Below are positions 738-22,220 of a stretch of 32,000 bases of DNA, piece after piece. A model generated the notes under the pieces. That model did not search any database and was not told the origin of the DNA. It worked only from the letters and a program-made list of their open reading frames with translations. This DNA is from an archaeon (lineage in GTDB: Archaea > Asgardarchaeota > Thorarchaeia > Thorarchaeales > Thorarchaeaceae). A program made the position numbers and the translations under genes. The DNA lies in NCBI GenBank assembly GCA_024275415.1, contig JAJRZD010000064.1:30001-62000 (forward strand), written 5' to 3'. The stretch's first letter is position 1; each line of letters opens with the position of its first letter.

Positions 738-2735
738 GTGCCAAATAGACTGTCGTCCCATCAATCAAGGTTTCCCCTGATCCGATGCTTTCTCTTTGTT
801 ATCCTCGGATTAAGCATTGTTCTCTTTCTAATACCCATACCAGCATCAGCCACGAGCTCTACCCTAGTTTCTCGAGGCGAGCCATTTCAAATCTCTGTAA
901 CCCTTTTGACAAATACAACAGATGGTGAGCTGTTGTCGAATCAGGTAGTTGAGTTCTATGACGAAACATACGATACCTTTCTTGGCGAGGCTGTCACTAA
1001 CGAACTGGGTATTGCCACCCTTGATTATGCATTCCCTCTCACACATCCAAAAGGGTACACACTGGTCAATGCAACATTTAGAGGGAATGAGTCCCAATCT
1101 CTCGCTCCCTCTTATCAATGGATTCTTTTTCTTGTAACGTCTCTCACTTCAATGGAATTAAATTATTCTAGCACCCTTCTTGCTCCAAATGACGATTTGA
1201 TCATATCAGTATCTCTCACTGACGACTTGGAGAATCCACTTCCCAATGAAAAAATAAGCATCTACTGTGATGGGACGTTGCTTACGACATCTCGTACGAA
1301 TATATCCGGATACGCCTTGGTAGATATCAATCTAGAAAACGCATCGATTGGTGTTGGACACCATTCTATTTTAGTTGTCTATGAAGGCAATAGTACTAGT
1401 TTTGACAGAGGTGTTTCGAATACTTTCGATTTTGAGGTTCGGAAGATTACGACGAGCATCAATCCCCTAGAACCAATTAATGAGTCACTTGAATTAAACC
1501 AGACTATTGGGGTCGATGTTGAGGTAATCTCAAACGAAGGTCCTCTTAGTGATGTGCCCTTGTCTATCCTGATAGATGGCACTGTTATTGGCAAATCATC
1601 AACAGACTCGATAGGTCGAGCATATTTCACCATCTGGCTAAATGAGTCATACTCTTTAGGCTTTCACATATTAGAAATCCAATATTCTGGTGACATCCGG
1701 CATGATTCAAGTGCATTACAGGTTGAAGTCAAGATTATCACGGATCTCCTGTTGGGCATTACACATGACCCTATCGCTACAATAAATTCTACCATTGGCA
1801 TTGATTTGGAAGTACTTGACATTCTTGCACGACCTCTTCCTCATGTATTTGTCACATTGTCTGATACCACTGCAAATCGAACCGTGTTCTTCGAGTATGT
1901 ATATCAATCTGAAATAACACTAGAATTCGCAATTACTGGGACATTGGGAATGCACAAGTTCTACCTAACCGCAGAGAGCGGGTTTGCCAAATCCAATGAC
2001 ACCGAAACTTTTCTCATAGAAGTTTGGATAATGCCTTCTTTCCGTATCATCTCATCGAATATATTTGGCTATGCAACCCCCGAACAAACAATTCAGTTAA
2101 CAGCCCGTTTGAGTGATAATCTCGGTAACCTATCACACAAGTCTGTTACAGCACTCTTCTCATGGAACGCAGATAATCTATATATGACTAGTGATCAATT
2201 TGGCATCATCCGATTGACAATCACAAGCCCCGCTCTCCTTGGAATTCATAGTATTCTTCTCAACTTCAATGGAAGTCCTTCTGATTTTGAGTTTCCCTCC
2301 ACATATCAGTATTTCTTCAACGTAAGCACAAGCATCCCTGTGAGAATAACCGATTTCGTCTTCGATATCGATTACATAACGCGTTCAATATCTCTGAGAT
2401 TGCAGATATACATCCTCAATGTAACCCCCTTAAGTAGGGTTCCTGTTGAAATACGCTGGCATATCTCCCCACCTATCTCTATAATGCCTTCTCCCGAAGG
2501 GAGATTGTTTCTATCTCTGTCTTTACCACTAAACCCCGGACTATATGAATTTGGTTGCCATATCCCCACGGGAAAGGGTATTGGGGCACATTCAGAAACA
2601 CTCTACATTGTCATAAACCCTACAGACTCGAATGTTTCTGAGGGTATAGGATTCTACCCCTTAGCACTCGGCATCTTAGGCTCTTTTTTGCTTCCAGTTC
2701 TACCGAAGATACGAAAGAAATCAATCACAAGATGA
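738..2735 (+). CDS. Secreted, C-terminally membrane-anchored protein with about 5 Ig-like (Big-type) repeats
   Basis: N-terminal signal peptide (FLFVILGLSIVLFLIPIPASA). About 100-aa repeats of the pattern V.L.D..G.PL.N..V.I..DG..L....TN..G.A.......G.H.I...Y.G. C-terminal TM (FYPLALGILGSFLLPVL) plus a basic tail (KIRKK). Confidence 0.75.
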   Translation: MPNRLSSHQSRFPLIRCFLFVILGLSIVLFLIPIPASATSSTLVSRGEPFQISVTLLTNTTDGELLSNQVVEFYDETYDTFLGEAVTNELGIATLDYAFPLTHPKGYTLVNATFRGNESQSLAPSYQWILFLVTSLTSMELNYSSTLLAPNDDLIISVSLTDDLENPLPNEKISIYCDGTLLTTSRTNISGYALVDINLENASIGVGHHSILVVYEGNSTSFDRGVSNTFDFEVRKITTSINPLEPINESLELNQTIGVDVEVISNEGPLSDVPLSILIDGTVIGKSSTDSIGRAYFTIWLNESYSLGFHILEIQYSGDIRHDSSALQVEVKIITDLLLGITHDPIATINSTIGIDLEVLDILARPLPHVFVTLSDTTANRTVFFEYVYQSEITLEFAITGTLGMHKFYLTAESGFAKSNDTETFLIEVWIMPSFRIISSNIFGYATPEQTIQLTARLSDNLGNLSHKSVTALFSWNADNLYMTSDQFGIIRLTITSPALLGIHSILLNFNGSPSDFEFPSTYQYFFNVSTSIPVRITDFVFDIDYITRSISLRLQIYILNVTPLSRVPVEIRWHISPPISIMPSPEGRLFLSLSLPLNPGLYEFGCHIPTGKGIGAHSETLYIVINPTDSNVSEGIGFYPLALGILGSFLLPVLPKIRKKSITR

Positions 2736-2745
2736 TATACCTGAA

Positions 2746-2855
2746 TGGTGCTCCGGCCGGGATTCGAACCCGGGTCGGGGGATCGAGAGTCCCCCATGCT
2801 GGGCCGGACTACACTCGGCTACCTGAATTACATCATTCCAAGTATCTACCGGAGC
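2746..2855 (-). tRNA. tRNA-Glu(CTC) with a 32-nt non-canonical intron at position 10/11 (intron 2814-2845); CCA encoded
   Basis: Exon 1 GCTCCGGTAG (2855-2846) plus exon 2 TGTAGTCCGGCCCAGCATGGGGGA-CTCTCGA-TCCCCCGACCCGGGTTCGAATCCCGGCCGGAGCACCA gives a complete cloverleaf. A BHB motif (helix CGGT/GCCG, bulges AG^A and AG^T) cuts exactly at 10/11. Confidence 0.93.
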
Positions 2856-2967
2856 GAAGCAATAACCAGTCCGGAGCACCACTGCACCAATTAACCCGCC
2901 AAATAAGGTTTTCTCACTGCACCAAGAAAAATCTTGGGAGGGCTTGCGAAAATTATTTCCAACAAAC

Positions 2968-3177
2968 TTATCCTGATGGCCATAAATCTGTCAATCCGGT
3001 CCAACTATCCTCAAGAATTTGAAGAAGACCAGCTATCACCTCCTGTGCCCACCCTGTCGCTTGTAAGATGACCGCAATCACAATAGAAATTGTGATTACT
3101 GCAAGCCCGAGCAGCAGACTCTCCTCAACCAGAGGCCCTCCTGTATCTTCTTCTATGATTGTGGGAATTCTTGCCAT
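2968..3177 (-). CDS. Flp/Fap-like type IV pilin (69 aa)
   Basis: EEDTG|GPLVEE: Gly at -1 and Glu at +5, then a ~20-aa hydrophobic helix. Small size, AGGTG SD upstream, adjacent to a secretion ATPase. Confidence 0.7.
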   Translation of the reverse strand: MARIPTIIEEDTGGPLVEESLLLGLAVITISIVIAVILQATGWAQEVIAGLLQILEDSWTGLTDLWPSG

Positions 3178-10921: not shown

Positions 10922-11026
10922 GCGGCCATAGTCTAGTCTGGTTAGGACGGAAGCTTCCCAAGCTTTTGACCCGGGTCGAGTTTCCATTATGAACTCGCGG
11001 GACTTCAAATCCCGGTGGCCGCACCA
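10922..11026 (+). tRNA. tRNA-Gly(CCC) with a 28-nt non-canonical intron at 53/54 (10976-11003); CCA encoded
   Basis: Acceptor stem GCGGCCA/TGGCCGC; anticodon arm GAAGC-TTCCCAA-GCTTT. Strict BHB: TTTGA-CCCG-GG^T-CGAGTT / AACTCG-CGGG-AC^T-TCAAA. TATA-like TTTTATC about 23 nt upstream. Confidence 0.95.
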
Positions 11027-22111: not shown

Positions 22112-22220
22112 GGGCAGGTGGTCTAGATTGGTATGATTCTTGCTTGGGGTTCACCAAGGTGCCATACCTTGGCGAACAATTTGCAAGAGGTCGGGAGTTC
22201 AAATCTCCCCTTGCCCACCA
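22112..22220 (+). tRNA. tRNA-Pro(GGG) with a 32-nt canonical intron at 37/38 (22150-22181); CCA encoded
   Basis: Acceptor stem GGGCAGG/CTTGCCC; anticodon arm CTTGC-TTGGGG^T-GCAAG; intron hairpin CCAAGGT/ACCTTGG; T arm GGGAG-TTCAAAT-CTCCC. Confidence 0.92.

Follow-up and report, generated by a model that had tools for sequence, protein, structure and literature searches.

In the current view, an archaeal tRNA intron can persist only at a site where the tRNA around it permits the BHB splice motif to form, and we know of no explanation so far for introns whose BHB conflicts with the tRNA's own stems. The tRNA-Glu(CUC) gene described here raises exactly this question. It lies on the minus strand (2855-2746) of a 32,000-nucleotide stretch of Thorarchaeaceae DNA (GenBank assembly GCA_024275415.1, contig JAJRZD010000064.1), called the window throughout, and it is interrupted by one 32-nt intron at position 10/11. 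Cutting at this position would require tRNA bases 5-8 to pair with the end of the intron in a 4-bp BHB helix, and this pairing would compete with the acceptor stem. How, then, might such a precursor come to be spliced? An earlier reading, made from the sequence alone, noticed that the leader repeats the acceptor 5' strand and proposed that this copy acts as a decoy. Having weighed this idea against orthologs, intronless relatives and folding predictions, we consider it reasonably probable that a stand-in strand, acting in cis from the 5' leader, lets exon 1 form the BHB in the intron-bearing tRNA-Glu(CUC) precursor.

The tRNA-Glu(CUC) gene and its intron

Exon 1 (GCTCCGGTAG, 2855-2846) supplies tRNA positions 1-10 and is followed by the 32-nt BHB intron (2845-2814) and by exon 2 (2813-2746), which supplies positions 11-76, contains the anticodon CTC at 2787-2785, has the CCA encoded and ends CCGGAGC-A-CCA. 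Excision of the intron restores a tRNA-Glu: once it was removed in silico, ARAGORN identified the resulting 78-nt sequence as tRNA-Glu(ctc), in support of both exons. The intact gene is far less visible. The Rfam tRNA model (RF00005) matched it over model positions 9-63 only, with 32.2 bits (gathering score 29), and ARAGORN run on the intact window called none of its three tRNA genes, the intact tRNA-Glu(CUC) included. The two further genes that it missed, at 10922-11023 and 22112-22217 on the plus strand, also bear introns; the T arm of one is interrupted by 34 nt and the anticodon loop of the other by 35 nt. A 96-aa open reading frame on the plus strand (2732-3022) runs antisense to the entire tRNA-Glu gene and its leader; judged by the variation of the flanks among orthologs, it is most likely spurious.

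The splice motif draws on the acceptor stem

The conflict with the acceptor stem depends on where the central helix of the BHB lies. The sequence-only reading had placed it on tRNA positions 5-8, and the orthologs bear this out. In the window C5, G6, G7 and U8 (2851-2848) pair with intron GCCG (2819-2816), and across 53 distinct orthologs C5-U8 and intron RYCG form standard pairs in 100% of alignment cells, giving the full 4 bp with alternating pairs (U-A in 36 and U-G in 17; G-C in 51 and G-U in 2). This exon 1 strand is thus shared between the BHB and the acceptor stem. Both flanking bulges are of 3 nt, the 5' bulge reading A9 G10|A and the 3' bulge N N|U11 (A G|U11 in the window). The two intron bases of the 3' bulge are free to vary among orthologs (AG, AU, UA, UG, AC, AA and CC), and the window itself has a competing fold in which the 3' bulge is base-paired. 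On the intron side, helix h' consists of 8 bp (2844-2837 with 2827-2820), and the ortholog alignment has double changes at six of six counted pairs. On the exon side we found no helix h of at least 2 bp; G12-C4 is the sole pair next to the 3' bulge, with U13 opposite U3, so that the motif, classified by its sequence, is of the HBh' class and not a strict hBHBh'. The genome encodes two open reading frames with the EndA-family domain PF01974 (101.6 and 70.1 bits), and it also encodes an archaeal RNase P RNA.

A conserved copy of the acceptor 5' strand in the leader

The observation that had first drawn attention to the leader, a perfect 11-nt complement of the tRNA 3' end in the 5' flank, is correct: TGGTGCTCCGG at 2881-2871 (minus strand) complements the 3' end CCGGAGCACCA base for base. 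A search of the window that tolerated up to one mismatch recovered nothing besides the 11-mer and its reverse complement, where shuffled sequences lead one to expect 0.28. Within this complement lies GCTCCGG (2877-2871), a copy of the acceptor 5' strand and the candidate stand-in.

Orthologs were collected with a pattern that fixed the exon-intron junctions and left the leader free, which gave 54 distinct intron-bearing sequences from species-representative genomes and 16 more from metagenomes. The intron-bearing gene occurs in 57 of 87 genomes and in 13 of the 17 genera of the class. If the leader copy serves the 10/11 intron, orthologous genes should keep it, and they do: the 12-nt motif GCUCCGGACUGG is present in all 70 distinct intron-bearing orthologs, sitting in the form GCTCCGGACTGG 19-25 nt before exon 1 in every sequence. 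Among the 54 orthologs each of its twelve positions carries 1.4-2.0 bits; GCU and C5 of the stand-in are invariant, positions 4, 6 and 7 are at least 93% conserved, and the second module of the leader, ACTGG (2870-2866), has 1.4-1.9 bits per position. The surroundings are of another kind. The spacer between stand-in and exon 1 (2865-2856 in the window) measures 7-13 nt among the orthologs and shows little conservation; like most positions from the TATA box down to the motif, it carries 0.05-0.9 bits, while position -10 reaches 1.19. Such a pattern supports strong constraint on the leader copy.

The copy also occupies a telling place with respect to the promoter. A BRE/TATA-like element, GAGAAAACCTTATTTG, lies at 2915-2900 on the minus strand and is the putative promoter. 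TTATTT (2906-2901), already suspected of being a BRE/TATA-like box, proved to be part of a motif, GGAAAGCCTTATTTG, that is common to all orthologs including the intronless CUC genes; the box of the tRNA-Glu(UUC) genes differs from this CUC type. The leader motif begins 21-25 nt past the last base of the TATA 8-mer CTTATTTG (22 nt separate the 8-mer from G2877 in the window) and has C directly before it in 87% of cases. Archaeal transcripts are expected to start at an established distance from the TATA box, which the motif start matches, and promoter spacing hence suggests that the transcript probably starts at G2877, the first base of the stand-in.

This refines the earlier placement of the start near 2877-2881 in that the stand-in does lie at the predicted start, G2877, while TGGT (2881-2878) falls just upstream of it. 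TGGT is the complement of A73-CCA, and the proposal that the leader sequesters the CCA as well finds no support in the orthologs, most of which have C at -1 and, upstream of it, unrelated bases. Being unconserved and on the promoter side of the predicted start, TGGT appears specific to this window and is probably not transcribed, so the conserved element amounts to 7 + 5 nt and not 11, and is confined to GCTCCGG and ACTGG (2877-2866).

Many orthologs (e.g., L003, L002 and L014) have GGAGCAC or TGGTGC(T) between the TATA box and the predicted start, at 2881-2876 in the window. The former has the same sense as the tRNA 3' end and the latter is its complement. They could be duplication relics, or they could be used by read-through from an upstream small open reading frame (3177-2968, minus strand). 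An alternative promoter at TTAATT (2894-2889) was considered and discarded, being conserved in no ortholog. A scan for bacterial promoters and terminators gave no matches and is not applicable to archaea.

Public transcript data touch the locus through relatives. Four metatranscriptome runs contained only assembled contigs of relatives, none of them with a start, end or splice junction of this gene; contig X11 covers the leader, intron and TATA box and may be DNA or read-through, and contigs X16 and X18 derive from an intronless ortholog. In a search of sequencing runs the best share of the sampled sequence words was 0.13, and no run contained half of them or more; shares of this size probably reflect conserved tRNA parts of relatives.

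Folding of precursors with and without the leader motif

What would the leader motif do to the fold of the precursor? The sequence-only reading had it take the acceptor 3' strand (CCGGAGC, 2756-2750), which is contested by the stand-in and exon 1, and so free exon 1 for the BHB. Nearest-neighbor folding of 54 precursors, each from the first G of the motif, predicts just this. With the motif present, the median probability of the helix between stand-in and 3' strand is 1.0, that of the true acceptor stem 0 and that of the BHB central helix 0.88. Deletion of the first 12 nt turns the prediction around (medians of 0.86 for the true acceptor stem and 0.06 for the central helix), and scrambling of the motif leaves it in between (0.38 and 0.45). 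In unspliced precursors the stand-in fold is favored by a median of 7.0 kcal/mol. The window precursor follows the same pattern: with the leader its minimum free energy is -64 kcal/mol (z = -3.85) and the leader is paired with the 3' end, and without the leader a normal acceptor stem is predicted. In thermodynamic terms the proposed fold is plausible.

The alignment is largely consistent with this helix. The stand-in and the 3' strand are pairable in 98.4% of alignment cells, and at stand-in positions 1-5 all changes are C to U opposite G, so that pairing is retained; at positions 6-7, G to A changes break pairs in six sequences. In L017 and L179 exon 1 has become GCCCCGG along with the 3' strand and the stand-in is still GCUCCGG, which leaves a U-G wobble only. 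No compensatory double changes were seen in this helix in the ortholog alignment, a test made uninformative by the invariance of the pairing partners, i.e., the 3' strand and the D arm. RNAalifold on a MAFFT alignment recovered the pairing of stand-in and 3' strand; it chose exon 1 with the D arm and missed the BHB because the intron columns are misaligned.

Splicing in silico does not reverse the preference. The stand-in fold is still ahead by a median of 6.3 kcal/mol in spliced sequences, hence secondary-structure energies predict no automatic hand-over to RNase P and do not account for release of the stand-in. In the spliced form exon 1, once freed, has the D arm as a possible partner. With its sequence CCGG-CCC-AGC, the D arm (2807-2798) repeats the acceptor 3' strand CCGGAGC with an interruption, and owing to this resemblance exon 1 and the stand-in are both able to pair with it.

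The same region offers the leader a second partner. Alignment and nascent-prefix folding mark the D-loop/D-arm stretch AGTCCGGCCCAG (2810-2799) as an alternative, either through AGUCCGG or through CCAG. It might thus be asked whether the leader acts mainly by pairing with the D arm (GCU-CCGGACU with AGUCCGG-ccc-AGC), thereby guiding co-transcriptional folding or holding exon 2. The match is a good one: apart from a 3-nt bulge, leader bases 1-10 are fully complementary to D-arm bases 14-23, and leader CCGGACU pairs with D-loop AGUCCGG in nascent prefixes with a probability of 0.97. Moreover, the ACU behind the copy is conserved, and all seven of seven A-to-G changes at leader position 8 retain a G-U pair with U16. 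Prefixes that end before the 3' strand, however, form the BHB helix about equally well with the stand-in (0.88) or without it (0.80), so that the stand-in matters only for the finished transcript, and mispairing of exon 1 with the D arm is rare (0.01-0.07). In full-length RNA the probability of CCGGACU with AGUCCGG is about 0, and the minimum free energy fold instead pairs leader CUGG with D-arm CCAG. An A8 to U change in L187 breaks the D-loop pairing but keeps UUGG:CCAG, and the tRNA-Thr and tRNA-Arg genes described below share the complementarity to the 3' end without a conserved D-loop complement. We regard the D arm as an unlikely main target. ACUGG fits two mutually exclusive pairings, and the prefix folds suggest that the leader may switch partners, pairing with the D loop first and then with the 3' strand.

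The leader motif follows the intron

Relatives that lack the intron provide a natural comparison. The class also contains intronless tRNA-Glu(UUC) genes with a nearly identical tRNA body, and the 20 distinct ones compared have no leader copy; the best 12-mer in their leaders differs from the motif at 4-7 positions, versus 0-3 in the intron-bearing genes. Intronless CUC orthologs have kept the CUC-type promoter and show the motif with 2-7 differences. Genus g4 has 2-3 of them, g16 has 4 and g11 has 7; within g1, the genus of the window, one subclade has 3-5. The motif of g11 and of part of g1 is near the null level. That these lineages keep the promoter while the motif decays argues for a constraint tied to the intron and against a purely promoter-level one, on the strength of only about four independent losses.

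Genus g4 (7 genomes) has lost the intron and retained a copy competent to pair. In its intronless genes L005, L006, L125 and L127 the copy stands at an unchanged distance as GCTTCGGACTCG or GTTTCGGACTCG, and the changes keep G-U wobble. The retention could reflect recent loss of the intron or a role independent of it.

In the window's own genome, no other tRNA has two nearby copies of its 5' strand. A signature scan, for two 5'-strand copies upstream of the T arm plus a matching 3' strand, covered this genome and the fetched loci and found the layout at no tRNA besides Glu. The other 5'-half introns seen in the genome lie inside the D loop and use no acceptor bases.

These comparisons bear on a reading in which the helix between leader and 3' strand serves end processing or quality control apart from splicing, whether by keeping RNase P, nucleases or the synthetase away from the encoded CCA end or the acceptor, or by mimicking the mature blunt end. 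With the copy at the predicted +1, the helix would indeed resemble a mature acceptor end; in the window and in the tRNA-Arg of the other family the complement reaches base 73 and CC; and the intronless g4 copy, with its pairing-preserving C to U changes, fits such a role. On the other side, the 20 tRNA-Glu(UUC) genes with their near-identical bodies do without the copy, it is absent or decayed in the other intronless CUC lineages, and within the window's genome it is found solely at the tRNA whose BHB invades the acceptor strand. We give this reading a small chance.

Similar leaders in another Asgard family

Is the arrangement peculiar to tRNA-Glu? Three intron-rich genomes were searched, and from one of them partial tRNA matches starting at model position 8-10, plus two others, were fetched. 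In another Asgard family, tRNA-Thr(GGU) (L146:1501-1651; L147-L150) has an 8/9 intron whose central helix pairs C3-G6 with intron CGGG. Its leader repeats the 5' strand of this tRNA, GCCCCGG, about 25 nt past the TATA box, with a variable spacer of 4-6 nt to exon 1. The copy is intact in four of five genomes, which represent two genera, and is disrupted in L149. Folding gives 0.94-0.99 for the pairing of stand-in and 3' strand in the four intact cases, and the BHB helix is predicted in one of the five. If leaders of this kind are provisionally grouped as a class, defined by a 5'-strand copy close to the start of genes in which the BHB of the first intron draws on acceptor bases, a copy of the tRNA's own 5' strand is found in 70/70 intron-bearing tRNA-Glu genes, 4/5 tRNA-Thr genes with the 8/9 intron and 0/20 intronless UUC genes.

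The tRNA-Arg(UCG) genes of the same family's genomes (L151:1501-1663; L152-L155) begin with GGCGGGTY, which a spacer separates from the true exon 1, GGGTCTGTA. All 8 nt of GGCGGGTY are complementary to the 3' end, with base 73 and CC among the bases covered. In the outgroup, L155, GGC adjoins the 5' strand and there is no duplication; in the ingroup, GGC and the first five bases are duplicated upstream, which suggests that the tRNA-Arg stand-in arose by tandem duplication. For the first intron of this tRNA (L151-L154) we could place no convincing BHB central helix.

An origin by duplication invites the view that the copy is a functionless relic of a duplication at intron gain, kept only through its overlap with the transcription start region. 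The tRNA-Arg pattern of outgroup and ingroup does resemble a tandem duplication, and in tRNA-Glu the motif lies at the predicted start with C-1 and G+1 conserved. The twelve positions of the motif near 2 bits, however, go far beyond what archaeal initiators are known to need, and flanks and spacer are scrambled over 13 genera. The decay of the motif where the intron is lost and the promoter retained tells against it as well, as does the recurrence, in an unrelated tRNA, of a seven-base identity with the tRNA's own start. We think a mere relic very improbable. A further suggestion, which would make the upstream GCTCCGG the genuine 5' exon and treat everything from there to the second copy as another intron, has next to no chance and is rejected: the identical 7-mers lie 22 nt apart and removal of 22 nt would yield the same product, but no register of the repeat offers a 4-bp central helix, two 3-nt bulges and the right product, CCGG, the sole palindromic 4-mer, yields the wrong junction, the downstream copy fits the changed 3' strand of L017 and L179 when the upstream copy does not, and it is the downstream copy that is then followed by the correct U8 A9 G10.

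Discussion

The stand-in reading of the leader, to which we return, can be set out as a sequence of events. Transcription would begin at G2877 with GCUCCGGACUGG, the first seven bases of which repeat the acceptor 5' strand. Once the precursor is complete, the stand-in would pair with the acceptor 3' strand over 7 bp and CUGG with D-arm CCAG. With the 3' strand so occupied, the true exon 1 would stay in the BHB fold and lie open to the splicing endonuclease. As the BHB fold has no acceptor helix ending at the -1/+1 junction, RNase P should wait, and it would act only after the real acceptor stem has formed. The leader might in this manner enforce splicing before 5' maturation, as the sequence-only reading had it. 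Considering the preference for the stand-in fold after splicing, strand exchange would need a driver, such as tertiary structure, modification or the binding of RNase P.

Neither the Asgard intron census nor the openly searchable reviews and papers on non-canonical, split and permuted tRNAs yielded a description of an acceptor-strand copy in a leader. The word "leader" is absent from the census (bioRxiv 10.64898/2026.10.13.758758), and in the reviews leaders come up only in connection with split or permuted tRNAs (PMC4090602, PMC4033280). The intron itself has company among the non-canonical archaeal BHB introns (Thermoproteales; bioRxiv 10.64898/2026.10.13.758758; PMC4090602), which likewise lie outside 37/38, combine exon and intron in a 4-bp helix with 3-nt bulges, depend on EndA and are also missed by standard tRNA finders. 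Their descriptions cover the exon-intron junction only, whereas tRNA-Glu adds a conserved leader strand that would replace the acceptor 5' strand. In the acceptor-stem introns of Thermoproteales, at 3/4, the splice motif also conflicts with the acceptor stem and the leader is needed during splicing, but the leader bases are themselves a strand of the BHB; in tRNA-Glu the BHB is made of exon 1 and intron, and the leader would compete for the other acceptor strand.

In split tRNAs (Nanoarchaeum equitans, Caldivirga) and permuted tRNAs, a complementary leader and trailer likewise organize the precursor for EndA (PMC4090602, PMC4033280). Leader and trailer there form the BHB and are cut by EndA, while the predicted tRNA-Glu leader helix is outside the BHB and has no bulges. 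An uninterrupted helix of 7 bp (11 in the window), away from the splice sites, does not place the gene with the split and permuted tRNAs. The tRNA-Glu leader would instead pair with part of the mature tRNA, the acceptor 3' strand, and would presumably be removed by RNase P. Leaders that block RNase P, known as eukaryotic leader-trailer helices and as engineered riboswitch leaders (PMC8925977), similarly pair with the acceptor 3' region and prevent the precursor from being a substrate. They are about the control of RNase P alone and have no coupling to an intron, unlike the tRNA-Glu leader, which is an exact copy of the 5' strand and whose conservation tracks the intron.

It is tempting to generalize, and we do so tentatively, in a proposal that we hold with some doubt: stand-in strands may form a general, repeatedly evolved class of leaders, derived from tandem duplication, which opened the otherwise closed junction of acceptor and D arm to BHB introns, with a leader that switches from the D arm to the 3' strand and a fixed order of splicing, strand exchange and RNase P cleavage.

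Several consequences would follow if the stand-in reading is true. The signature of the leader could be used by tRNA finders, which is of practical value as ARAGORN misses the gene and the Rfam model matches positions 9-63 only. The tRNA-Arg duplication would be a lead on the origin of these introns and of their helpers, the origin of the introns having been left open by the Asgard census (bioRxiv 10.64898/2026.10.13.758758). A stand-in would also account for the unusually long leaders of such genes, and it predicts an obligatory order of processing. Finally, a conserved leader strand that temporarily stands in for the acceptor 5' strand would resolve the conflict between the BHB and the tRNA's own stem simply and by RNA alone.
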